Shown here one piece after another: positions 11,856 through 59,289 of a stretch of 64,000 nucleotides of DNA (its first letter is position 1; every line of letters starts with the position of its first letter). The stretch is taken from positions 54,135 to 118,134 of the forward strand of contig JAPLVZ010000011.1 of assembly GCA_026396805.1 (NCBI GenBank), written 5' to 3'. The stretch is from Candidatus Falkowbacteria bacterium (GTDB lineage Bacteria > Patescibacteriota > Patescibacteriia > Patescibacteriales > UBA12465). The notes under the pieces were generated by a model. That model was given only the letters and a program-made list of their open reading frames with translations. It was not told the DNA's origin and made no database searches. A program made the translations under genes and the position numbers.

Positions 11856-12292
11856 GTTATTAGAGCAGCCGTAAGCCGGATTCTGTTCTAGCGATCATTT
11901 ATCTAGGCGCGCCATTGCTGGCGAGCTCGAGCGAGCTACTTACCTTAACTCGTTCCGCCATCCGCCAACCGGCGGAGGCGGACGAGTTAGTTTGCTCTTG
12001 CTTCTGATAGGGTTTACCACGGCATCTCCGTCACTGGAGGCCGAAGCCGGTAGCCCCGAAGGGCATCCAGCCACTTTTCACCTTTGATTCTGTCAAAAAT
12101 TCCAGAATTAGTATTGTCTCTGTGGCACTTTCCCTAATCCATTTAGTCTTAAAACGAGACTAGCCCGTAAATTAAGAAAAATAGACCGGTGGGCGTTACC
12201 CACTATCATATTTGCTTATAAATAAACAAATTACGAAGTCCGGACTTTCCTCTCTATTAAAAATAGAGCAATCGCCCGCTTACTCTAATAAC
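11856..12292 (-). ncRNA. rnpB: RNase P RNA, bacterial type A
   Basis: Minus-strand read contains GAGGAAAGTCCGGACTTCG, GTGGGTAACGCCCAC, AGGGAAAGTGCCACAGAGA, GCCGTGGTAAACCC..AAGCAAGAGCAAA and CCTAGATAAATGATCGCTAGAACAGAATCCGGCTTACGG. P1 pairs GTTATTAGAG with CTCTAATAAC. Confidence 0.9.
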
Positions 12293-27524: not shown

Positions 27525-28271
27525 TTACGAACGAACGACAATTCTCCCATTAATTACCGCCAAAACTTTTAATCCAAGCTTTTTGAAATTTAACCTTCGT
27601 CCGCTGGCGCGTAAGCGTTTTCTTAATTCCTTGACTGAAGGTATTTTCCGATCATAATAATTTAGCGGCGCCGCTTTTAAGTTGACAAATAAATCAAAAA
27701 TACTGTTATCTTTTACCGCCGCCGGATATTTTTCCAGAGCGCCTAAAACTTGGCCGACCGGCAATAATTTAAATTTTTGACCCTTGGTTTCTTGGCGATA
27801 GAAAGAGCCGTAATGCTTTAGTCTGGCGACACTTGTATACATAGTTCCGCGGCAAAACGGGCTGTCGCAAAAACAAGGATAAAGGAATTCTTTCTTATCG
27901 CTATCATCCGGATCAAAGCCATAATCAATCGTTAATTCTTCGCCCGACCAAATACGACGGAGCGCAAAATATAAAGTATGGCCATAATAGAAATAAGCGT
28001 CGCAATTCGGCGCGCAGGAATGGTTGATTAGATGAACACCGGCGGCTTTTATATCCACGGGGAAAATAGACAAACCATTATTATTATAATCCATGGAATA
28101 ACAGGCATTGCCGTATCTTTTTTCCAGAATCTCCGCCTTGGCGTCCTCCATCAATAACCCGAGATAATCGCCGATAATCGTACCGGCGGGAATCTCCTGA
28201 CGAACAAAAACGCCGCGCCCTTTTTTCTTGGTTTTTTTAATTTGATAGTAACCGGGGGGTAATAAGAGCAT
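27525..28271 (-). CDS. SET-domain protein-lysine methyltransferase family protein (with C-terminal extension)
   Basis: 248 aa. Motifs GRGVFV, NHSCAPN, EELTIDYG, and post-SET Cys cluster CFCDSPFCRG. Confidence 0.85.
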   Translation of the reverse strand: MLLLPPGYYQIKKTKKKGRGVFVRQEIPAGTIIGDYLGLLMEDAKAEILEKRYGNACYSMDYNNNGLSIFPVDIKAAGVHLINHSCAPNCDAYFYYGHTLYFALRRIWSGEELTIDYGFDPDDSDKKEFLYPCFCDSPFCRGTMYTSVARLKHYGSFYRQETKGQKFKLLPVGQVLGALEKYPAAVKDNSIFDLFVNLKAAPLNYYDRKIPSVKELRKRLRASGRRLNFKKLGLKVLAVINGRIVVRS

Positions 28272-28272
28272 A

Positions 28273-28806
28273 TTATTTTTTAAGCGACGATTTCCTCAAT
28301 TCCGGCCACATCCGTTCCAGATTCTTTTTCCTGAATTCCGAATTAAGCGAATCTTGACCGGTCACCAGCCCCCGACAATTAGGCGCGCCGCAAGCGCACT
28401 TCATCTTAAATTTCTGATCGAACATCCAGCCATAGTCCAAAAATAATTCTTCATCCTTCTTAATGTTTCTGGCCGCCACGTAATTCCCCCTTTTGTCATA
28501 GGCCACATTAGGAGAACAGCTGTGATTAAAGTACCAGGACGTCCCGATGTTATTCAAATCAGCCGGCAGACAATATTCAGCATCCTCGTCAAGAACGGCG
28601 AAACTATTGATCTTTTTTTGAGTGATCTTATCCAGCTTTTTAAAATAACGCCGAGGTAAAATAACCGCTTCTTCCGGCGAATCAATGTCGGCGATAATAG
28701 CGCCTTTTTTAATATTACGAACCGCGAAAGTCGCTACTTCTCCGGGCAAAGCTTTAGACGGACGAATCTCAAACATAAGCCGGGGAATGGTTTTAACTTT
28801 TTTCAT
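28273..28806 (-). CDS. SET-domain methyltransferase family protein
   Basis: 177 aa. Motifs NHSCSPN, EELFLDYG, and post-SET CACGAPNCRG. Its stop is 1 nt from the start of the next SET gene. Confidence 0.85.
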   Translation of the reverse strand: MKKVKTIPRLMFEIRPSKALPGEVATFAVRNIKKGAIIADIDSPEEAVILPRRYFKKLDKITQKKINSFAVLDEDAEYCLPADLNNIGTSWYFNHSCSPNVAYDKRGNYVAARNIKKDEELFLDYGWMFDQKFKMKCACGAPNCRGLVTGQDSLNSEFRKKNLERMWPELRKSSLKK

Positions 28807-28841: not shown

Positions 28842-31310
28842 CTACATCACGTTCGACTGGAGATGGTAATAAGGCGGATTGTCTTTATAGCGCTTAATGG
28901 CGAGACGAATAATTTCTTCCAAAAAATCGCCGTAATTCATCCCGATAACTTCAGCGGAAGCGGAAAATGTTCCTTCCACGTCCAGGGACGGATTCGGATT
29001 AAGCTCCAGCACGTAAGGATTATTATTCTTATCGACGCGGATTTCAATGCGGCCGTAGTCATGGCAGTCCAGGATATTATAAGTATCAAGCGCGATTTCT
29101 CCCAAGAGCTGTTCCAGTTTTTTGCCGATATTTTTCGGCGGTCTCTGCACGACTATCTTTTTATATTCCCCGCCGTCGGCATATTTCGCTTCAAACGGAT
29201 AAATATGCCATAAATTTGCCGGCAGATTATCAAAAATAGACCGCGCCAGAGGTAAGATGCGCAAATCATCTTCTTCCGAACCGATAATCGGAACATCATA
29301 CTCATCGCCGTCAATATACTCTTCAATCAAAGCCGGACGGCCGATTTCTTTCAAAACTATGGCCAGTTGACGGGTTAATTCCTCTTTGTTCCTGACGACG
29401 GAGTCATTAGTGATACCAATAGAATTATCGGTATTAGCCGGCTTGACGATGAGCGGATATTTCAAATCTTCGCGGATATCATCCTCCATGGAATAAACAT
29501 AATCCCATTCCGGCGTCGGAATTTTATGATAGCTTAATAATTTCTTGACGCGAATCTTATCAATGCATAAACCCAAAGTAAAAGGATTGGAGCCGGTATA
29601 AGGAATCTGAAGAGTGTCAAGAATTGAGGCGACGTGCGGCTCCAATAAACTGGAGTTATTGATGCGCTCGCAGACATTGAAAACGAGGTCAACGTCGCTA
29701 TTCTTCAGGTCGTTAAAAGCTTTCGGCAAATCGTTAAAATCAAAAAAACTGATCTTATAGCCTCTTTCTTTCAAGGTCTTCTCCACATCCATCCCGATAA
29801 CCGTCAGATCTTTTTCCACCACCGTTTCCTGGTCGGCGCCGCCTTCTTCGTACATATTACAGGCGATGCCGATATGAAGATTGCGCTGGTTGGAAATCGC
29901 CATTTTGCGGATTTTTTCAATCTTGGAACGGCGCTTGAGAATATCCACGTTAATCGCCGAAGCCGAGAACGGCGAGCGGCGCGTCGTCTTGCCGATGGAC
30001 GAGGCGGGATGAAATTTCGCGACTTCGTAATAAATCGCTTTTTCCGCCTCGCGCAGATTATCCTGGGCGTCCAGCGGATTATGGCCGGAAACCAGGACCC
30101 AGCCCAGATATTCATAGCCGTCTGGCGGTGAGAGAACCGAATCGCCTATTTTTTTCTCAAACTGGAATTCTTTAACAAAAGGGCGGCGTTTCAAATCTTC
30201 ATCAATGTTTAAATTAACGATGATGCCGGAGTAATCCGAAGAAAATGTTTCCGCCACCAAGTATTCATAGGGCCCGGCCGGAAATTCAAGTTTAGGAATA
30301 TAAATACCGCAAGCGATCTTAACCAGATTTTCCACCAAATCAACGTGCCAAGCGGCTTTAACGCTCGGATAAACCTCGTCGCCTCCCAGGCGCAGGTTTA
30401 CTTCTAAAGGAATAGGCCCGGTGGCGGTTGATTTAGCTTCAAAATGAATACAGCCGTTTAAGACACCGAGTTTTTCCAAGGTTTCGTCGGCCATGGCAAT
30501 CAGTTCGGCCTGATGCTTCGGCGGCAAACTGGACGGCGTCATGCGCGTCGTTTCAATAAAAAAAGGCTCCTTGGTCTTACCATTATCGGAAAGAGCGCAG
30601 AATTTTATCTTGCCGTTTTGAATCAGGATATCCAAATCAACCTCATCGCCGTCAATATATTCTTCCACAAAAACTTCCAAGCCATCAGCTAGGGCTGATT
30701 CTATCTTCGGAGAAATATTCTTCTTGATATAATCATAGCTTTCACGCAGTTCTTCTTCATTATTGACCTTAACGACAAAGGCGCTGGACGCGCCATAGGC
30801 CGGCTTAACGACTAAAGGAAAACTTAAAAGCTTCAGGGCTTCATCTAAGTCCTTATGACTCTTCAGAGCCCGAAACTTAAGCGCCGGCAGATTATTGACG
30901 GCGCAAAATTCACGAAAAGAGTATTTGTTTCTGACTTGAGCGGCAACCTTATAAGGGATATTGATCAAATGGTACTTATCGGCAATTTTAGCGGTCAACA
31001 AGACATCATCTTCCAGGAAAGTTAAAACTCCATCCATTTTAACGCTCGGATTATTGCTTAAGAATTTATCCAGCGCACCCAGCGATTCCGCGTAATTAGA
31101 GGTATCGGCCGAAAGAGAATGGTCCACATAAGGCTGAAAGCTATTCGCTTCCTTGCTTAGAATAATGATTTTTACCCCTAAATTCTTAACTTTCTTGATA
31201 AAAAGTTTTTTAGAATGGAGAGGATCGTTCGCTCCGGTCGTATTAACTATTAAAACCGTCTTACCGACTAAAGGACTACGGTTGGAATCCGAATTGCCAT
31301 TGCCGTTCAT
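28842..31310 (-). CDS. fusion of two ATP-grasp ligase modules (N: L-amino-acid-ligase/carnosine-synthase-like; C: D-Ala-D-Ala-ligase-like)
   Basis: 822 aa.
- N half: FPLVVKPAYGASSAFVVKV..VFVEEYIDGDEVDLDIL..HFEAK..PLEVNLRLGG.
- C half: YPLIVKPANTDNSIGIT..ALIEEYIDGDEYDVPIIG..GRIEIRVDKNNNPYVLELNPNPSL. Confidence 0.8.
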   Translation of the reverse strand: MNGNGNSDSNRSPLVGKTVLIVNTTGANDPLHSKKLFIKKVKNLGVKIIILSKEANSFQPYVDHSLSADTSNYAESLGALDKFLSNNPSVKMDGVLTFLEDDVLLTAKIADKYHLINIPYKVAAQVRNKYSFREFCAVNNLPALKFRALKSHKDLDEALKLLSFPLVVKPAYGASSAFVVKVNNEEELRESYDYIKKNISPKIESALADGLEVFVEEYIDGDEVDLDILIQNGKIKFCALSDNGKTKEPFFIETTRMTPSSLPPKHQAELIAMADETLEKLGVLNGCIHFEAKSTATGPIPLEVNLRLGGDEVYPSVKAAWHVDLVENLVKIACGIYIPKLEFPAGPYEYLVAETFSSDYSGIIVNLNIDEDLKRRPFVKEFQFEKKIGDSVLSPPDGYEYLGWVLVSGHNPLDAQDNLREAEKAIYYEVAKFHPASSIGKTTRRSPFSASAINVDILKRRSKIEKIRKMAISNQRNLHIGIACNMYEEGGADQETVVEKDLTVIGMDVEKTLKERGYKISFFDFNDLPKAFNDLKNSDVDLVFNVCERINNSSLLEPHVASILDTLQIPYTGSNPFTLGLCIDKIRVKKLLSYHKIPTPEWDYVYSMEDDIREDLKYPLIVKPANTDNSIGITNDSVVRNKEELTRQLAIVLKEIGRPALIEEYIDGDEYDVPIIGSEEDDLRILPLARSIFDNLPANLWHIYPFEAKYADGGEYKKIVVQRPPKNIGKKLEQLLGEIALDTYNILDCHDYGRIEIRVDKNNNPYVLELNPNPSLDVEGTFSASAEVIGMNYGDFLEEIIRLAIKRYKDNPPYYHLQSNVM

Positions 31311-41249: not shown

Positions 41250-41297
41250 AATTTAATATTCCCGGGTAGCGCTCCGCCAGCTGGCGGAGGTAGCGCA
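41250..41297 (+). repeat. upstream partial copy of tRNA-Asn 5' flank + acceptor/D-arm, interrupted by an 18-nt perfect palindrome
   Basis: AATTTAATA-TTCCCGGGTAGCGC-[CTCCGCCAGCTGGCGGAG]-GTAGCGCA. It matches 41537-41573, where the bracketed part is AGCG. Confidence 0.85.
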
Positions 41298-41302
41298 TTT
41301 AT

Positions 41303-41569
41303 ATGTATTATGTCTATGCTCTATACAACGAGCGCAATAATAAAATATATATAGGTCAAACCTGTGATTTAGAAAAGAGGCTGATTTTACATAATAGTAA
41401 AATTATAAAGAAATCATACACCTTTCGATTTAATGGTTCTTGGGATATAGTTTATAAAGAAGAGGTTAAAGATAGAACGTCCGCCTTAACTAGAGAAAAA
41501 CAATTAAAAAGTTATCAAGGCAGAATATTTATTAAAAATTTAATACATTCCCGGGTAGCGCAGCGGTAG
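41303..41569 (+). CDS. GIY-YIG nuclease family protein (stand-alone URI domain)
   Basis: 88 aa. YYVYALYNERNNKIYIGQTCDLEKRLILHN..REKQLK. The last 7 codons and the TAG stop lie inside the tRNA-Asn gene (41549-41569). Confidence 0.8.
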   Translation: MYYVYALYNERNNKIYIGQTCDLEKRLILHNSKIIKKSYTFRFNGSWDIVYKEEVKDRTSALTREKQLKSYQGRIFIKNLIHSRVAQR

Positions 41570-41860
41570 CGCAGTTGGCTGTGAACACATTAGTTCTAAA
41601 CGCAGCTTCCTCAAGTAATTGAGGTCGAATAACGAGGTGAATTGCTGGAAGTCTAAATCCGTGAGGATAAGATAATCAGCAGCCAAGCCCTGATTTTCAG
41701 GGAAGGTTCAGAGACTATCCCGTAAGGGAGTACTTCTCTAATTCTTAGAGCAGGAAGCGCCTCGCATCCATTTCAATGGATGATGATATAGTCCACCCCA
41801 CTTGGAAACTAGTGGATAAGTGTAACCAATTGGTCGTCGGTTCGAATCCGACCCCGGGAG
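41549..41860 (+). tRNA. tRNA-Asn(GUU) interrupted by a group I intron (exons 41549-41582 and 41823-41860)
   Basis: - Acceptor TCCCGGG/CCCGGGA, discriminator G.
- D arm GCGC-AGCGGTA-GCGC.
- Anticodon stem GTTGG/CCAAT; spliced loop CTGT|TAA.
- T arm GTCGG-TTCGAAT-CCGAC.
- CCA not encoded. Confidence 0.8.
41583..41822 (+). ncRNA. group I intron (240 nt, ORF-less) in the anticodon loop
   Basis: - Conserved core: GCAGCCAAGCCC (41679-41690), GTTCAGAGACTA (41706-41717), GATATAGTCC (41785-41794).
- IGS GCAGCT (41602-41607) pairs with exon GGCTGT, giving U.G at the splice site.
- The intron ends in G.
- GTAA-tetraloop hairpins are present. Confidence 0.85.
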
Positions 41861-42086
41861 CAAGCATAAAATAGGCTAATATTAGCCTATTTTTTGTTAT
41901 AAAAAAGTAAAATATACTGTCTAAAATATCAAAGTGTGACGTTATTGTGACATAAAATAGATATTTTTTAAGTGAATAAAAATATCTGTTAAATGAGTCA
42001 GGCGGGCTCTCTTGACAAAAAAGAATGCATATTGTATTATTTTTTGATAGTTAAAATCATATTGTTGAACCTTAAAAATATAGAAA

Positions 42087-47066: not shown

Positions 47067-48128
47067 TCAGTTGCTCACCGGGTTGCCGATTTTATAGTTG
47101 GTGAAAAAAGTGTCAGGAATATCGGCGACGTTTTTTGCCCATAAGGCTCCGTAATATTTCGTGGCGATAGCCGGATTTATCATCAAGCGAAGCGTGCCGT
47201 TACGATCAACAGCATAGACCTTGGAGTCGGTTTGGATTTTTACTAATTTGACGCCCGGGCGATAAGTAACATTTCCGCCCAAGAGGATTTTACTCAAATC
47301 TTCAGGCGCGATTATCTTAACAGTGGAAAAATCTTTATACCAAGTGGCGTAAGTTTGGGCGTTCGGGAAGACGTAGCGCTTGCCGTCTGAACCGCAATAA
47401 TAGACCGAGGAAATCGAAGGAGTGCGTATCAGTGAACCGGGCGCGCAATAAACCGTCGCTCCCGGAGTCACAACCAATCCTTTATCGGAATTAATAGTCG
47501 GGCTGGCGGCCTTGGCGGCGGCGACATCATAAGCGGAGATTTTCAGGGCGGCGTTTAAATATGGATACGGATCAATAGCGCTATCATCCGGCAAACGAAT
47601 TTCAAAATGGAGATGCGAGACGGTCGCCTCGGCGTTCCCGGAATCGCCGACCCAGGCGATATGCTGGCCTTGAATAACCTGTACGCCCCTTTCAATACCC
47701 GGCGCGTAGGCGTACTGCAATCCGCCGTTACCGTCATCCGTCCCCGGCGTGTCGTTATTGATGTGAAGATAATTGTACTTGTAGCCGTCGTCGCCGGCAA
47801 TCGAAAGCATATAGCCGTAACTCGGTTCAGTCAGCGACGCGGAAACTATCCTCCCGCCCCGGGCGGCCACAATGAGCGTCATCTTTGGCGCTATCAGATC
47901 ATTGCCTTCATGGATGCGGCCGCCGCTGCGCCCATCGCCGAAATCATCGGTAAAGCTCGCTCCTCCCTGAACGGGAAAAACAATGTCGGGCGGCCCGGAT
48001 GGTGTGATGGTCAAAGACTCGTACCAATCGTTATGCCAGCCGTTATCAGAATAGACCTGCGCACTCGCTAGAGATGGCGCTAACAGAGTCGCGACGATTA
48101 GCACCGATAGGGCGAGGCGGCTGTTCAT
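47067..48128 (-). CDS. M23 family metallopeptidase with C-terminal ~120-aa module shared with the S-layer-like protein
   Basis: 353 aa. Signal peptide; HEGNDLIAP (HxxxD) and GDSGNAEATVSHLHFEI (HxH). The C-terminus SVYYCGSDGKRYVFP..LGGNVTYRPGVKLVKIQTDSKVYAV..FFTNY is the shared module. Confidence 0.88.
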   Translation of the reverse strand: MNSRLALSVLIVATLLAPSLASAQVYSDNGWHNDWYESLTITPSGPPDIVFPVQGGASFTDDFGDGRSGGRIHEGNDLIAPKMTLIVAARGGRIVSASLTEPSYGYMLSIAGDDGYKYNYLHINNDTPGTDDGNGGLQYAYAPGIERGVQVIQGQHIAWVGDSGNAEATVSHLHFEIRLPDDSAIDPYPYLNAALKISAYDVAAAKAASPTINSDKGLVVTPGATVYCAPGSLIRTPSISSVYYCGSDGKRYVFPNAQTYATWYKDFSTVKIIAPEDLSKILLGGNVTYRPGVKLVKIQTDSKVYAVDRNGTLRLMINPAIATKYYGALWAKNVADIPDTFFTNYKIGNPVSN

Positions 48129-48206
48129 ATTTTATTAATCATACCATTTTCTCGGAAAATTTGACAAGTTCTTGAATTATTTTTTAAACCATGTTATCAT
48201 AATTAT

Positions 48207-48340
48207 ATGGTTTCAAATAAATTCCAAACAGCAAGTCAGAATTGGCGGACTGCCTATAATATTGGGTAGCTGGTTTTTTGTTTAAAATTTATTTTTTAAA
48301 ACTACCCGATATATGATTTATTGGGTAGTTTTTATTTATT
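48207..48340 (+). promoter_or_regulatory. transcription attenuator candidate: 20-codon mini-ORF with one Trp codon + mutually exclusive antiterminator/terminator hairpins
   Basis: - Mini-ORF MVSNKFQTASQNWRTAYNIG* spans 48207-48269, with TGG at 48243-48245.
- GGGTAG (48264-48269) or GGGTAGTTTT (48323-48332) can pair with AAAACTACCC (48298-48307).
- The second hairpin is followed by TATTTATT. Confidence 0.5.
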
Positions 48341-48442
48341 AAAGCTTTATCTTATGTATTATTATTTTCACAATCGATCCACCCAGCCTTGGCGACTCGG
48401 TTTGGCGCGCTGATTTATTTATTAATTATAAATTTAAATTAT

Positions 48443-49642
48443 ATGAAAAATTCCTTAAAATTATCACCCGATCAGACCGGTTATTTCGGCGAATACGGCG
48501 GACAAATTATCCCGCCGGCCTTAAAGCCGATTTTCGATGAGATTGCCGTGGCCTATAAAAACGCTCAAGCCGATCCTAATTTCCGAGCCGAATATGAGAG
48601 CCTGCTGAAAAATTATGTGGGCCGACCGTCGCCCCTATATTACGCCCGTAACTTGTCGGAGAAATTAGGGGGCGCGAAAATCTATTTCAAGCGCGAAGAT
48701 TTAAACCATACCGGGGCGCATAAAATCAATCATACTTTAGGCGAGGCCTTACTGGCTAAAAGGATGGGCAAGACTAAACTGCTCGCGGAAACCGGCGCCG
48801 GTCAGCACGGCGTCGCTTTGGCGACAGCCGCGGCCTTGGTCGGTCTGGCCTGTGAAATTCATATGGGCGAGATTGATATTGTCAAACAGCATCCCAATGT
48901 TATCCGCATGCAACTGCTGGGAGCGAAAGTAGTGACTGTAAAATCCGGCGGCCGCTGCTTGAAAGACGCGGTTGATAGCGCTTTTGAGGCTTTCGTCAAA
49001 GATCCGCAGAATATCTTTTTCGGCATCGGCTCGGTTGTCGGCCCGCATCCCTTTCCGATGATGGTCAGAGATTTCCAATCCATAGTCGGCAAAGAAACCC
49101 GGGTTCAAATCTTAGAACAAGCCGGCCGACTGCCCGATTATCTGGTTGCCTGTGTCGGCGGCGGTTCCAACGCCATCGGTTTATTCCATGAGTTTTTAGA
49201 CGACCGGGACGTAAAAATGATCGGGGTTGAACCGAGCGGCAGAAGTTTTAAGCCGGGCGACCACGCCGCGACTTTAACTTTAGGAAGACCGGGCAATATT
49301 CATGGAATGTTCACTTACCTGTTGCAGGATGATAAAGGCCAGCCATTACCGGTCCATTCTATCGCTTCGGGCTTGGACTATCCCGGCGTCGGACCGGTTC
49401 ACTCGGATTTAAAAGATAAGGGCCGAGTAACTTATGAGACTATTAATGATGCCGAGGCACTGGAAGCTTTTCAGGTTTTGACTAAAATTGAAGGAATAAT
49501 TCCGGCGCTGGAAAGTTCTCATGCCGTGGCCCAGGCCATCAAACTCGCGCCCAAGCTAAACTCCGATAAAATTATCATCGTCAATTTATCCGGTCGGGGA
49601 GACAAGGATGTTGATTATGTGGCGGAGAGATTGAAGTTATAA
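48443..49642 (+). CDS. trpB: tryptophan synthase beta chain (stand-alone)
   Basis: Start set at MKNSLKL (48443). [27 protein letters not shown] (PLP lysine), GGGSNAIG. Confidence 0.92.
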
Positions 49643-56545: not shown

Positions 56546-57937
56546 TTAAAATTCGGCGTTCTTAGGCGTGCGCGGGAACGAGATGACGTCACGGATATTG
56601 GCCAGGCCGGAGAAATACATAATCATCCGTTCAAAACCTAAACCGAAACCGGCGTGCTTAACCGAACCGAAGCGGCGCAAATCCAGATACCATTCATAAT
56701 CCTCTTTCTTCAAACCCATCTCGGCCATGCGCTTGATCAGATTATCCAGACGCTCTTCTCTCTGGCTGCCGCCGATTATTTCGCCAACGCCCGGAACGAG
56801 CAAATCCATGGCGGCGACGGTTTTACCGTCTTCGTTCAAGCGCATATAAAAAGCTTTGATTTCTTTGGGGTAATCAGTGACAAAAACCGGTTTTTTATAA
56901 ACCTTGTCCGTCAGATAACGTTCATGCTCGGTCTGAAGATCTATTCCCCATTTCACCGGCCAAACGAATTTCTCGCCGGACTTGGTTAAAATTTCAATCG
57001 CTTCGGTATAAGTGACGCGGCCGAAATCGGAATTAACGATATTATTCAAACGTTCCAAAAGGCCGGTATCAATAAATTTATTGAAGAATTCCATTTCTTC
57101 CGGCAATTCTTTTAAGACATAAGTAATTAAATATTTCAGCATCTTTTCCGCGAGCGCCATATCGTCGTTAAGGTCGGCGAAAGCCATTTCCGGTTCCATC
57201 ATCCAAAATTCGGAAACGTGGCGGGTCGTATTGGAATTTTCCGCGCGGAAAGTCGGACCGAAAGTATAAACCTTATTCAATCCCATCACTAAAGCCTCGG
57301 CGTTAAGCTGGCCGCTGACGGTCAGCCCCGCTTTCTTACCGAAAAAATCGGCGCTGTAATCAACCTCCCCGTTCTTATTTTTGGCGATGTTCTTTAGATC
57401 CAAAGTCGTCACCTGAAACATTTCCCCGGCGCCTTCGGCGTCGCTTGTGGAAATTATCGGAGTCTGGATATAAGAAAAGCCTTCCTCTTGAAAAAATTTA
57501 TGAATCGCGTAGCTTAAAACCGAACGCAGGCGGAAAACCGCGGAAAAAGTATTGCTGCGGCCGCGCAGATGCGCGATCTCGCGTAAGAATTCAAAACTAT
57601 GTTTCTTTTTTTGGAGCGGATAGTCTTCCGACGCTTGATTAAGAATAATGATTTTTTTGGCCTTGAGTTCGAAGGCCTGACCGGCCGCCGGCGATTTCAC
57701 GAGCTCGCCCTCAATTTCCAAAGACGAGCCGACGCTGATATTTTCCACTTCGGAAAAATTATTCAAATCGCTTCCGAAAACTATTTGCAGGCTTTTGAAA
57801 AATGAACCGTCATTTAATTCAATGAAGCCGAATTCCTTGGAAGAACGCGCCGTCCGAACCCAGCCGGCGACGCTTATCTTCTTATTCAGATAGCGGCCAG
57901 TATCTTTGTATAATGATTTTACGAGAATGTGAAGCAT
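56546..57937 (-). CDS. asnS: asparaginyl-tRNA synthetase
   Basis: 463 aa, class IIb. N-terminal OB fold ([23 protein letters not shown]), [30 protein letters not shown]. Confidence 0.9.
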
Positions 57938-57987
57938 AGAGAATAAATGATATTTATATTACGAAATTTCCCTTATGAAACCAGGGG

Positions 57988-59289
57988 TTACGGAGTCAGT
58001 CTCTTGACGTCTCGGGGCAGGAAGCAAGCTTCCTTGACGTTTCCCAGATTTAACATTTTCATCACGATGCGTCCCGGTCCCATGCCGATACCGCTATGGC
58101 TCGGGCAACCGTAACGGAAAAAGTTTAAATAATCTTTTAATTCTTCAAGATTCATCCCTTTTTCAACAGCCTGTTTTTCTAGAATCTCAATCCGATGCTC
58201 ACGCTGCGAGCCGGTCGTAATTTCCAAACCGCGATATAATAAGTCAAAACTCTTGGTCAGCCCGGGATTATCCTGATGGCGCATATGATAAAAGGGTCGG
58301 GCCGCAATCGGATAATCAATCACGAAAACAAAATCATGCCCGGTTTCTTTCTTGATAATGATACCCAGTTCTTTTTCTTCTTCCGTGGAAAAATCATAAT
58401 CCTTTTCGCTCCTGATGCCGGCCGCTTTTAATTTTTTCTTAGCCGCCGCCAAGCTTATTTTCGGGAAAGGTTTAGTCGGAACCTCTATATTGAGCCCTAA
58501 ATCTTCTTTAACTTTTTTAAAACCGTTAATCAATAAATCTTCTTCAATGCCCATCACGTCGTTATAATCGGAAAATGAAACTTCAAGATCCCAGCCGGTG
58601 AACTCGGTGACATGGCGGGTGGTAAAAGACGGCTCGGCGCGAAAAACCGTTCCGACCATAAAAACTTTCTCCAGGCCGGCCGCCATGGCCATTTGTTTAT
58701 AAAATTGAGGAGACTGGGCCAAATATGCCGGGCGGTCAAAATACTTTACCTCAAAAACCTCCGAACCGCTTTCCGAAGCGGTGCTCATAAAACAGGGGGT
58801 ATAAATCTGGATAAAATTATTCTTCAGCCAATATTCACGGCAACCGGCTTCCAGTTTCGTCCAGACTTTAAAAATAAGCTGATGTTCCGCCTGGCGTAAA
58901 TCCAGCCAGCGCCAATCAAGGCGATTTTCCAAATTTGCCTCATTATCCGCTTTTGTTAAAACAGGAATAGGTAAATTTTCATTAGCTAAAGAAATCAGTT
59001 CCGCTTGCGTGGCCGCCAATTCAAAATCCTTGTTCGGGTTAGGATCATTTTTCTTGGCCGGTTTTTCCTGCAAGGTCCCGGTAACTTTAATGACACTTTC
59101 CAGGGTCAGTTTTTCCGCCAAATCATAGCCCCCTTGGCCGGACACGAAAACGACTTGCATTGATCCGGAAATATCGCATAAATCTATAAAGACTAAATCT
59201 TTATGAGCGCGTAAATTTCTCACCCAGCCGCCGACAGTCACTTCCCCGACACCTTGTTTTTTCGCGTCGACAATTAAAATTCTTGACAT
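57988..59289 (-). CDS. aspS: aspartyl-tRNA synthetase, archaeal/eukaryal-type (short form)
   Basis: 433 aa. VGGWVRNLRAHKDLVFIDLCDISG, FRAEPSFTTRHVTEF, GIGMGPGRIVM. Lacks the bacterial insertion domain, judged by length. Confidence 0.88.
   Translation of the reverse strand: MSRILIVDAKKQGVGEVTVGGWVRNLRAHKDLVFIDLCDISGSMQVVFVSGQGGYDLAEKLTLESVIKVTGTLQEKPAKKNDPNPNKDFELAATQAELISLANENLPIPVLTKADNEANLENRLDWRWLDLRQAEHQLIFKVWTKLEAGCREYWLKNNFIQIYTPCFMSTASESGSEVFEVKYFDRPAYLAQSPQFYKQMAMAAGLEKVFMVGTVFRAEPSFTTRHVTEFTGWDLEVSFSDYNDVMGIEEDLLINGFKKVKEDLGLNIEVPTKPFPKISLAAAKKKLKAAGIRSEKDYDFSTEEEKELGIIIKKETGHDFVFVIDYPIAARPFYHMRHQDNPGLTKSFDLLYRGLEITTGSQREHRIEILEKQAVEKGMNLEELKDYLNFFRYGCPSHSGIGMGPGRIVMKMLNLGNVKEACFLPRDVKRLTP

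Follow-up and report, generated by a model that had tools for sequence, protein, structure and literature searches.

Positions 48172–48442 of the window (the whole stretch of 64,000 nucleotides of Candidatus Falkowbacteria DNA analysed here) make up the leader transcribed ahead of a trpB that stands alone, in a metagenome-assembled genome from the CPR/Patescibacteria (Table 1). The product of the regulated gene was identified as TrpB with TIGR00263 (569.7 bits; cut-off 392), and a protein 100% identical to it is annotated as Candidatus Falkowbacteria TrpB. In the window, trpB is monocistronic, with an M23 peptidase, RpoD and DnaG encoded by the neighbouring genes, and none of the other trp genes (trpA, trpC-G) was found among the 49 window proteins scanned across the 64 kb. 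The comparative set consisted of 17 distinct leaders, with TrpB in the relatives 77–97% identical and the neighbouring genes all different. In every relative examined trpB stands alone behind a leader of 270–500 nt, and because the flanking genes differ each time while the leader is kept, the leader travels with trpB. Within the leader, a promoter, a short open reading frame with a tryptophan codon (ORF1), a set of alternative RNA helices ending in an intrinsic terminator and a second conserved mini-ORF (ORF2) follow one another, and the distance from the terminator to trpB is ~100 nt.

Table 1. Features of the trpB leader, in positions of the window; segments are numbered in order of transcription.
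Feature	Position	Strand	Basis or description
Sigma-70-type promoter of the leader	48172–48200	+	-35 TTGAAT, 17-nt spacer with TG, -10 TATCAT
ORF1, trpL-like 20-codon leader peptide MVSNKFQTASQNWRTAYNIG with stop	48207–48269	+	Reading frame; relatives
Segment 1, CTGCCTA	48250–48256	+	Pairs with TGGGTAG at 48263–48269 (1:2 hairpin)
Segment 2, ATATTGGGTAG	48259–48269	+	3' arm of 1:2, 5' arm of antiterminator 2:3
CTGG then T-run, TTTTTTGTTT	48270–48283	+	Directly 3' of the 1:2 hairpin; T-run kept in alignment A1
Segment 3, AAAACTACCCGATATAT, core CTACCC	48298–48314	+	3' arm of antiterminator, 5' arm of terminator
Segment 4, ATTTATTGGGTAGTTTT, core GGGTAG, plus T-rich tail TTTTTATTTATT	48316–48340	+	Intrinsic terminator with segment 3
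ORF2, second conserved mini-ORF	48354–48413	+	3' of the terminator; in 16/17 leaders
Weak hairpin, lineage-specific, spanning the ORF2 W-R codons, then T/A-rich motif TTTATTTATTAATTAT	48372–48429	+	
trpB (tryptophan synthase beta subunit), regulated gene	48443–49642	+	TIGR00263; identical annotated TrpB

The leader promoter has 9/12 consensus matches plus the extended TG and is kept in the relatives, with a gap of exactly 6 nt between the end of the -10 element and the start codon of ORF1 in 13 of the 17 leaders. Because the -10 element ends 6 nt before the ATG, the ORF1 mRNA is probably leaderless or nearly so, and judging by the promoter position transcription would begin at or within 1–2 bases of that ATG. 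The sensor codon of ORF1, a TGG at 48243–48245, is codon 13 and is followed by CGG, while the stop codon TAG (48267–48269) falls within segment 2 and within the repeat ATTGGGTAG. The window has just one TGG, which the original prediction had itself flagged as weak evidence, a caveat that is answered by the relatives, since two Trp codons are present in ORF1 of 13/17 leaders, 12 of them with a tandem TGG-TGG and one (L090) with W-S-T-W. A T-to-C change in the window lineage leaves TGG-CGG where most relatives have TGG-TGG. Tryptophan accounts for 0.98% of the codons in the window's genes. The single-Trp ORF1 of the window should respond more weakly than the tandem pair of the relatives.

Among the 12 relatives with a 20-codon ORF1, the length and the Trp position (codon 13) are fixed, and TGG-TGG occupies codons 13–14 in 10 of the 12. 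In these relatives the peptide 5' of the Trp codons drifts, with no codon periodicity, and 3' of the Trp codons the nucleotides are fixed, with third codon positions the most conserved, which argues for a constraint of RNA structure rather than selection on the peptide in this part of ORF1.

The RNA structure is built around the 9-mer ATTGGGTAG, present at 48261–48269 and 48320–48328, and its partner AAAACTACCC at 48298–48307. With three copies in the 64-kb window against 0.30 expected, the 9-mer is by itself only mildly unusual, and its significance comes from conservation in the relatives and not from copy number. The antiterminator (2:3) joins segment 2 to 48302–48312 in a helix of 11 bp (91% complementary). 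The terminator hairpin (3:4) has arms at 48298–48314 and 48316–48332, ~14 pairs and a loop of 7, followed by TATTTATT. Folding of the window sequence gives −9.3 kcal/mol for the 1:2 hairpin and −14.5 kcal/mol for the terminator, and the three structures are mutually exclusive in order, 1:2 with the antiterminator and the antiterminator with the terminator. The 1:2 hairpin would act as an anti-antiterminator or pause hairpin, with segment 1 the part that a Trp-stalled ribosome would cover. Positions 48250–48269 together with CTGGTTTTTT scored as terminator-like, and the T-run that follows the 1:2 hairpin can lengthen the antiterminator by pairing with AAAA at 48298–48301; by analogy with the E. 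coli trp leader, this stretch is a candidate transcription pause or early-termination site.

Much of this arrangement had been read from the window in the original prediction. The 9-nt repeat, both of its positions and the shared partner are all present as described, and the 20-codon ORF with one TGG and a stop codon in the 5' arm of the antiterminator was confirmed. The proposed 10-bp terminator hairpin exists and has the T-rich tail but is longer, at the ~14 pairs given above, while the claim that the upstream pairing forms an antiterminator that excludes the terminator is borne out by its conservation in the relatives (see below). Segment 1, the promoter abutting ORF1 and the second mini-ORF had been overlooked.

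The layout of the leader, with ORF1, its Trp codon(s), mutually exclusive helices and compensatory changes, is kept in all 17 leaders, so that the alignment of relatives shows the mini-ORF, its TGG and the alternative pairings to be conserved. For the terminator form (1:2 plus 3:4) in alignment A1, 95.0% of cells are paired, compared with 33–50% when the partners are slid, and seven pairs have changed on both sides, which 0/500 shuffles reach, with the caveat that the 17 leaders are fairly close kin, that many pairs are invariant and that the shuffle control can overstate significance. By helix, 93.8% of the cells of 1:2 are paired, with two pairs changed on both sides, and 95.7% of those of 3:4, with five. 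The antiterminator is paired in 93.1% of cells (27–42% slid) and has three pairs changed on both sides. A whole-helix swap from GGG/CCC to GAG/CUC has taken place in three leaders (L088, L089 and L091), and three others (L023, L090 and L106) have wholly different arm sequences with the layout unchanged.

All three forms (1:2, 2:3 and 3:4) were computed by structure prediction. When the leaders were folded with the last Trp codon covered by a ribosome footprint and the transcript ending before segment 4, the 2:3 helix was obtained in 17/17, at −10 to −17 kcal/mol; the terminators of the same leaders have energies between −8 and −22 kcal/mol, with T-runs after them. Segment 1 begins 2–5 nt past the last Trp codon, and in the 16 leaders with the window-type ORF1 layout segment 2 contains the ORF1 stop codon, the exception being L090, with an ORF1 of 32 codons and a stop ~30 nt beyond segment 2. 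Searched with a covariance model of the element, the window gave a single copy (105 bits) and each relative likewise a single one, ahead of trpB; across the window and 63 loci, no copy precedes any other gene, such as transporters or trpS. Reverse-strand matches of the covariance model reflect merely the palindromic terminator. In a Peribacteria locus (L015), whose TrpB is 69% identical, WW codons and the 1:2/2:3/3:4 logic recur in a leader that looks unrelated. To cover other phyla, the 80 genome loci were scanned for W-rich upstream ORFs, and only this locus and possibly a Marinilabiliaceae locus (L057) looked real, the remaining ORFs overlapping coding sequence.

The leader is very probably a transcription attenuator of the classical kind, in which a ribosome translating a leader peptide senses charged tRNA-Trp. 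A ribosome acting on a Trp mini-ORF was the first of the two models in the original prediction, and it holds up in 17/17 leaders and in their compensatory changes, though as first drawn it lacked segment 1 and ORF2. In this attenuator, a ribosome would translate the 20 codons of ORF1 close behind the polymerase. When Trp-tRNA is scarce, the ribosome would stall at codon 13 (the window) or codons 13–14 (most relatives) and cover segment 1, leaving segment 2 free to pair with segment 3 once that is made, and the 2:3 antiterminator would then block the 3:4 terminator and let the polymerase continue into trpB. When Trp-tRNA is plentiful, the ribosome would reach the TAG in segment 2 and mask it, so that segment 3 would pair with segment 4 and transcription would stop in the T-run at about 48329–48340. 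Without any translation, 1:2 and 3:4 would both form, and termination would follow in this case too. The antiterminator does not exceed the terminator in stability at equilibrium, so the attenuator model depends on co-transcriptional kinetics and tight coupling; transcription-translation coupling in CPR bacteria is an assumption on which the model depends.

Transcripts that escape the terminator would carry ORF2. The ORF2 family has the consensus xYYF[HY]N[RK][SAC]TxxWR, with an invariant Trp codon (48390–48392) followed by Arg CGA (48393–48395), and beyond W-R the sequence and the stop position are free, the stop lying 6 to >51 nt after the TGG. The three codon positions vary by 0.20/0.13/0.32, the third the most, and synonymous turnover (including Ser TCN to AGC) as well as R/K swaps occur, a substitution pattern showing that ORF2 is conserved as a peptide. 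In metagenome contigs, a DNA pattern for ORF2 had 12 matches, of which seven (on six different contigs) are upstream of trpB and five are chance occurrences inside unrelated ORFs, and in viral contigs a relaxed pattern had 69 matches, all by chance in other frames and none near trpB. A reading of CGA/CGG as Trp, which would turn W-R into W-W, was rejected: in the window's trpB, the GRP motif has its conserved Arg at a CGA codon, and CGN and AGR codons are in normal use in the window's genes.

Around the W-R codons, a hairpin with a T-rich tail, ending at ~W+24, is present in 12 of the 16 leaders with ORF2 and missing from the other four. The motif that follows the weak hairpin in the window, TTTATTTATTAATTAT, is conserved and T/A-rich. 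RNAalifold predicted no conserved RNA structure between ORF2 and trpB, the hairpins being lineage-specific. The stretch around and after W-R in the window is a candidate for a second weak terminator or for a part of the trpB translation-initiation region. The likeliest role of ORF2 is that of a second ribosome-stalling checkpoint: a ribosome held at W-R might occlude the weak downstream hairpin and T-rich tract, or might keep the mRNA open or protected, and this would multiply the response to Trp starvation. This assignment of a role to ORF2 is weak, because conserved structure is absent downstream, 4/16 leaders have no hairpin and T-tail, and one lineage (L087) is without ORF2.

It is possible, if unlikely, that ORF2 is instead a ligand-sensing arrest peptide, like TnaC and SpeFL, with a nascent chain that in the exit tunnel would respond to a small molecule such as free Trp, indole or serine, and not a plain Trp-codon checkpoint. 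At the level of sequence ORF2 has what characterizes arrest peptides, a chain conserved up to a fixed point and free beyond it: the 12 residues before W-R are conserved as peptide and everything after is free, the pattern expected for an event at W-R, and a comparable constraint on the peptide is missing from ORF1, which simply reads codons. The use of CGA after the TGG in 12/15 leaders, despite its share of 7% of the Arg codons in the window's genes, points the same way. Set against this, no likeness to known arrest peptides was recognised, the L087 lineage manages without ORF2, indole sensing is pure speculation, and a Trp-induced arrest would have the wrong logic, turning trpB on at high Trp if the second hairpin is a terminator. 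A tentative, rather doubtful extension of the attenuator reading would place two ribosome-based sensors in series on an orphan TrpB, a codon-counting attenuator and then a peptide-dependent arrest at Trp-Arg(CGA) that might read a small molecule and not tRNA charging alone. As a tandem, peptide-conserved element, ORF2 is a concrete candidate for a new arrest peptide.

For the upstream part of the leader, it is very improbable that the promoter, ORF1 and the terminator form an independent small gene for a peptide or RNA of its own, with trpB served by a separate promoter. In favour of this, the unit comes with a promoter and a good terminator, and the gap before trpB would suit two separate genes, but the unit is found only directly upstream of trpB, across many neighbourhoods. 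No convincing plus-strand promoter for trpB was found between 48340 and 48443, and the sole plus-strand match nearby (48433–48461) overlaps the trpB start codon. In Sinorhizobium the trp attenuator RNA and peptide act in trans (PMC6614838), a role that could coexist with attenuation. The antiterminator, conserved with covariation, would be needless in a simple terminated gene.

Still less probable is attenuation by a Trp-activated RNA-binding protein, TRAP-like or other, that picks the hairpin and makes the mini-ORF incidental. Alternative hairpins alone fit any effector that masks segment 2. A TRAP-type leader, as in Bacillus, contains 9–11 (G/U)AG triplets at 2–3 nt spacing that overlap the antiterminator, and here no run of even three was found. 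A binding protein would also leave unexplained the fixed ORF length and Trp position, the tandem TGG-TGG of 12/17 leaders and the stop codon in segment 2, and the promoter abutting the start codon fits obligatory translation.

A T-box-like riboswitch, in which uncharged tRNA-Trp would pair with a UGG specifier and a UGGN-like bulge without translation, was the second model of the original prediction and can be practically dismissed: T-boxes do control trp genes in Firmicutes, and the window has a CUGG bulge between GGGUAG and the U-run (48270–48273) with a UGG upstream, but RF00230 gave no match at the gathering threshold (whole window) or at E≤10 (leader alone), as was also the case for the Trp leader model, no GGUGGNACC-type core sequence was found, the bulge varies (CGG, ACGC, AGAT, GCG or ATG in relatives), the upstream UGG is kept in frame, at a constant codon position within an ORF of constant length, which is a translational signature, and the ~50 nt from the likely start (~48206) to the 5' arm of the antiterminator (48259), all of it ORF1 coding sequence with no conserved structure, leave no room for Stem I, a specifier loop and a K-turn. 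Across Rfam, searches of the window at the gathering threshold and of the leader at E≤10 returned only sub-threshold noise (SpF39, VrrA and L10 leader). The terminator accounts for every one of these noise matches.

CPR/Patescibacteria are ultra-small, mostly uncultured and host-dependent, with almost no biosynthesis, and to our knowledge next to nothing is known of their gene regulation; in the library searched, nothing relevant on trp attenuators or trpB regulation in these bacteria was found. If the attenuator reading of the leader is correct, CPR cells would couple transcription tightly to translation and rely on intrinsic termination, as E. coli largely does, and the orphan TrpB would be a genuine source of Trp, switched on when charged tRNA-Trp is low, with indole plus serine salvaged from the environment or host as its most plausible substrates. 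The trpB leader family is absent from Rfam and could be annotated as a new cis-regulatory element for >100 CPR TrpB clusters.

Among known systems, the T-box (RF00230) shares with the window leader the control of the Trp pathway by competition between terminator and antiterminator, but the window leader has no Stem I, specifier loop, core sequence or model match and would sense through codon translation. ORF2 resembles the arrest peptides (TnaC, SpeFL, SecM, Erm leaders) in a peptide conserved to a defined site, free beyond it and located directly upstream of a gene, and differs from them in that no sequence likeness was recognised. In TnaC the arrest falls at the stop codon, 12 residues past the key Trp, whereas ORF2 has its Trp as the last but one of the conserved residues and a stop codon of variable position. 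Leaderless attenuators are known from Actinobacteria, for example the mycobacterial Cys-responsive short ORFs, with the sensor ORF at the 5' end of the transcript and no Shine-Dalgarno sequence. As in these, the codon content of ORF1 would sense an amino acid, and the amino acid, phylum and sequence are different, with the leaderless state in the window suggested by promoter spacing.

Another known case is Chlamydia trachomatis, which keeps trpB(A) for indole salvage and whose trpRBA combines TrpR with the YtgR repressor, the translation of which depends on a WWW motif (PMC7755916, PMC6504234). This is likewise a reduced-genome, host-dependent bacterium with Trp-responsive attenuation directly upstream of trpB, unlike the window in that it has no cis leader peptide with an RNA switch (PMC7755916, PMC6504234). 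The trpE(G) attenuator of Sinorhizobium meliloti (rnTrpL/peTrpL), with a 14-aa leader peptide and consecutive Trp codons, illustrates that ribosome-mediated Trp leaders occur far beyond enteric bacteria and that the RNA or peptide, once released, can take on additional functions (PMC6614838), though gene, phylum and sequence differ from those described here.

The enterobacterial trpL is a close counterpart. The window leader differs from it in serving a lone trpB rather than trpEDCBA, in its probably leaderless mRNA and single Trp codon, in the second conserved ORF after the terminator and in its CPR host, and it does not match the Trp_leader covariance model (RF00513) at the gathering threshold or at E≤10, a functional likeness without sequence membership. 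Shared with trpL are a short Trp-codon ORF, the 1:2/2:3/3:4 segments, a stop codon at or in segment 2, a terminator with a T-run, the predicted antitermination upon stalling at Trp codons and an Arg codon after the Trp codon(s), with peptides that end in ...GWWRTS in E. coli TrpL, ...NWRTAYNIG in the window and ...WWTT.NIG in the relatives, each followed by the stop. Read as an attenuator of this kind, the leader is a textbook mechanism in an unexplored phylum, with ORF2 as an add-on.

The trpB gene of the window is very probably controlled by a Trp-codon leader-peptide transcription attenuator, in which a leader ORF (ORF1) and four pairing segments (together module 1) are followed by a second mini-ORF (ORF2, module 2). 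On reading 47600-48900, the two copies of ATTGGGTAG, the AAAACTACCC element and the 20-codon ORF1 (MVSNKFQTASQNWRTAYNIG), with its one TGG and a TAG stop within the first repeat, were found as originally predicted, and the window has three copies of the 9-mer where 0.30 would be expected. The predicted terminator hairpin is also present and is followed by a T-rich tail, though it has more pairs than the 10 bp first assigned to it. Because an extra hairpin (1:2), followed by CTGGTTTTTT, adds to the antiterminator (2:3) and terminator (3:4), the segments number four rather than three, on sequence the layout of a textbook trp attenuator.

Features of the trpB leader and of other parts of the window
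Feature	Position	Detail
RNase P RNA, bacterial class A	11856-12288 (-)	164 bits
Two tandem SET-domain proteins	27525-28806 (-)	
Double ATP-grasp / D-Ala-D-Ala-ligase-like protein	28842-31310	
Small ORF just upstream of split tRNA	41262-41545	
tRNA gene split by intron	41548-41870	
Group I intron (RF00028)	41602-41815	86 bits
Overlap of divergent promoters	48138-48200	
Minus-strand promoter-like sequence	48167-48138	TTGTCA-18-TATGAT
Leader promoter	48172-48200	TTGAAT-17-TATCAT with extended TG; conserved in relatives
ORF1	48207-48269	
Covariance-model match	48240-48341	105 bits
TGG of ORF1	48243-48245	
Hairpin 1:2	48250-48256 / 48263-48269	CTGCCTA / TGGGTAG
Antiterminator 2:3	48259-48269 / 48302-48312	11 bp
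ATTGGGTAG copies	48261-48269; 48320-48328	
T-run after 1:2	48274-48279	
AAAACTACCC	48298-48307	
Terminator 3:4	48298-48332	~14 pairs
ORF2	48354-48413	after terminator, before trpB
trpB start	48443	TIGR00263, 570 bits against cut-off 392
Two adjoining class II aminoacyl-tRNA synthetase genes	56546-59289 (-)	each tRNA-synt_2 + OB anticodon-binding domain

ORF1 is present in all 17 distinct trpB leaders compared. Two Trp codons occur in 13 of these, 12 as tandem TGG-TGG (e.g., MISNKFQIVSQIWWTTYNIG and MLKNTQTIKNNAWWTTHNIE, each followed by a stop) and one (L090) as W-S-T-W, while TGG-CGG, a single transition away from TGG-TGG, stands in the window and in its 96% relative; this answers the initial reservation that one Trp codon was weak evidence. 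Trp is codon 13 in all twelve 20-codon ORF1s. Codons 2-12 vary about equally at the three codon positions (0.24 / 0.33 / 0.29), so selection does not act on this part of the peptide; codons 13-20 hardly vary, least of all at their third positions (0.03), and are by this comparison under RNA-structure selection, as expected for a classical leader peptide.

Helix statistics were taken from an alignment of 16 leaders (A1). The terminator conformation (1:2 plus 3:4) is paired in 95.0% of alignment cells, against 33-50% with the partners slid 1-3 columns, and 7 pairs have changed on both sides, a count that 0 of 500 shuffles reach, such statistics being indicative rather than probabilities as the sequences share kinship. 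The antiterminator is paired in 93.1% of cells (27-42% when slid), with 3 pairs changed on both sides. Whole helices have been swapped, with all four segments reading CTACTCA / TGAGTAG in L088 and GCCGCCC / GGGT(A)GGC / GCCGCCC / GGGCGG in L023, and L090 and L106 build their segments from yet other sequences. Searching with a covariance model made from A1 gave one match in the window and one ahead of each relative's trpB, with none elsewhere in the window or the relatives' loci.

The last Trp codon lies 2-5 nt ahead of segment 1. When each nascent transcript was folded as far as the loop of the terminator, with all positions up to and including +12 of the last Trp codon blocked to imitate a stalled ribosome, the 2:3 helix formed in 17/17 leaders (-10 to -17 kcal/mol); free 1:2 hairpins have -3 to -11 kcal/mol and terminators, each followed by a T-run, -8 to -22 kcal/mol. 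In the 16 leaders with the window's ORF1 layout, segment 2 contains the ORF1 stop codon, so that a terminating ribosome would mask this segment; the exception is L090, where a 32-codon ORF1 stops ~30 nt past it. The T-run after hairpin 1:2 is conserved in A1 and, judging from the E. coli 1:2 pause hairpin, may pause polymerase until the ribosome arrives. The conserved ORF1, the exclusive helices and the folding across leaders bear out and extend the proposal that a ribosome on the Trp mini-ORF sets the terminator or antiterminator, and the suggested alignment of relatives' leaders found both the mini-ORF and the alternative pairings conserved.

That the leader holds an independent small gene, with trpB on a separate promoter, is unlikely, as no plausible plus-strand candidate lies from the terminator to trpB and the antiterminator is under selection. 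T-box-like tRNA sensing, which the original prediction had read from a CUGG bulge, is rejected: the bulge is not conserved among leaders, the core sequence is absent, Stem I cannot fit in ~50 nt of coding sequence, and neither the T-box nor the Trp_leader model matched at the gathering threshold or, on the leader alone, at E<=10, where the weak Rfam matches are terminator-driven noise. No (G/U)AG repeat array was found.

By sequence, trpB encodes a genuine TrpB that matches a protein from a Candidatus Falkowbacteria MAG at 100% identity; the nearest species-representative genome likewise belongs to Falkowbacteria. More than 100 TrpB clusters occur at 75-97% identity; those with names are Falkowbacteria, Patescibacteria-group or Parcubacteria, plus a few 'bacterium', and the majority are nameless. 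The gene is monocistronic, with a divergent M23 peptidase gene upstream and convergent rpoD and dnaG downstream, and a Pfam scan of 49 window proteins showed no other trp enzyme. In 14/14 relatives fetched with flanks trpB is solitary behind 270-500 nt of non-coding DNA, with varying neighbours (ribonucleotide reductase, UvrA-like, aminotransferase, nitroreductase, BipA and others); because trpB is always alone behind the leader and its neighbours differ each time, the leader travels with trpB. G+C is 27% in the leader against 44% in the window.

The -10 element of the leader promoter ends exactly 6 nt ahead of the ORF1 start codon in 13/17 leaders (one start is GTG), so ORF1 is probably translated from a leaderless mRNA, for which the leaderless leader peptides of Actinobacteria are a related precedent. 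Such a start would tie the first ribosome to polymerase from the outset. The absence of a recognisable Shine-Dalgarno before the M23 peptidase gene, ORF2 and trpB suggests that it is little used in this genome. The leader promoter and the divergent promoter-like sequence assigned to the M23 peptidase gene stand back to back and overlap.

Elsewhere in the window, a tRNA gene split by a group I intron was uncalled by ARAGORN; after splicing by hand it is called tRNA-Cys(ACA) with one choice of exon junction and tRNA-His(GUG) with another, and its anticodon loop, read by eye as CTGTGAA (GUG), makes His a candidate identity. The small ORF ahead of it has a GIY-YIG-like N-terminus by eye, and the tRNA 5' end is partially repeated there. 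The paired synthetase genes probably encode neighbouring paralogues of the AspRS, AsnRS or LysRS type, the SET-domain genes adjoin that of the large ATP-grasp protein, and the RNase P RNA is an ordinary housekeeping RNA.

ORF2, missed in the original prediction, is present in 16/17 leaders (consensus xYYF[HY]N[RK][SAC]TxxWR) and, contrary to ORF1, is conserved at the peptide level as judged from its codons (variation by position 0.20 / 0.13 / 0.32). Phe (TTT 9, TTC 6), Asn (AAT 5, AAC 9), Thr (all four codons) and Ser (TCN and AGC) turn over, and Arg and Lys interchange via CGA, CGG, CGC, AGA and AAA. The Trp codon is invariant and is followed in 12/15 leaders by CGA, which makes up 7% of Arg codons (37/511) in the window's genes. 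There is no conservation past W-R, the stop lying 6 to >51 nt beyond the TGG (immediately after W-R in L103); 23 long window genes use TAA 17, TAG 5 and TGA 1 times. RNAalifold found no shared structure from ORF2 to trpB, and 12/16 leaders have a lineage-specific hairpin around the W-R codons, ending ~24 nt past the TGG and followed by a conserved TTTATTTATTAAT motif. One leader (L087, TrpB 85% identical; locus 2377-2500) keeps module 1 and wholly lacks the ORF2 module, with a junction that looks like a deletion between two TTTATTTATTAAT copies, which in other leaders stand after terminator 1 and after hairpin 2. A degenerate ORF2 DNA pattern matched metagenome contigs 12 times, seven (6 different contigs) in trpB leaders and five by chance within unrelated ORFs; the 69 matches of a relaxed pattern in viral contigs were all chance.

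We interpret W-R as the site of ORF2's regulatory event. Scarcity of Trp-tRNA, perhaps with help from the nascent chain and from the uncommon CGA codon, would hold a ribosome at this site and so raise trpB expression. The ribosome could act by occluding the weak hairpin and T-tract, or by keeping the mRNA open or protected; that ORF2 is in this way a second, multiplicative checkpoint is a tentative reading. A ligand-sensing arrest peptide is a rather doubtful candidate, and delivery of ribosomes by ORF2 to the trpB start, which has no Shine-Dalgarno, is less probable still, as stalling under Trp starvation would be counter-productive. This tandem conserved ORF is a concrete candidate for something newer.

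Trp attenuation in CPR/Patescibacteria was not described in any paper found by full-text search; one paper notes that a minority of groundwater Patescibacteria MAGs have trpA and trpB (PMC8672522). An uncultured Candidatus Peribacteria locus (L015, 2835-2960; TrpB 69% identical) has a leader peptide unlike the window's (MVFMYTQIATIRNCWWKGSQKAWRF, then a stop) and an attenuator of unrelated sequence with the same 1:2 / 2:3 / 3:4 logic (1:2, AAAUCGCCA / UGGCGAUUU; 2:3, -17 kcal/mol under a stalled ribosome; terminator, CCGUCAG / CUGACGG, then U7), which places the strategy in at least two CPR classes. Its segment 2, formed by UGGCGA (W-R codons), calls to mind ORF2's invariant TGGCGA. The mechanism is textbook; its setting is an unexplored, biologically odd phylum, where the element is well conserved and annotatable. 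Chlamydia also has its salvage trpBA under Trp-responsive control, although by a protein-based route unlike module 1 (PMC7755916), and the Sinorhizobium trpL attenuator is a related precedent (PMC6614838). Module 1 is not a sequence member of Rfam Trp_leader, and no Rfam family matches it, but in predicted function it is the same as E. coli trpL, even to the Arg codon after the Trp codon(s).
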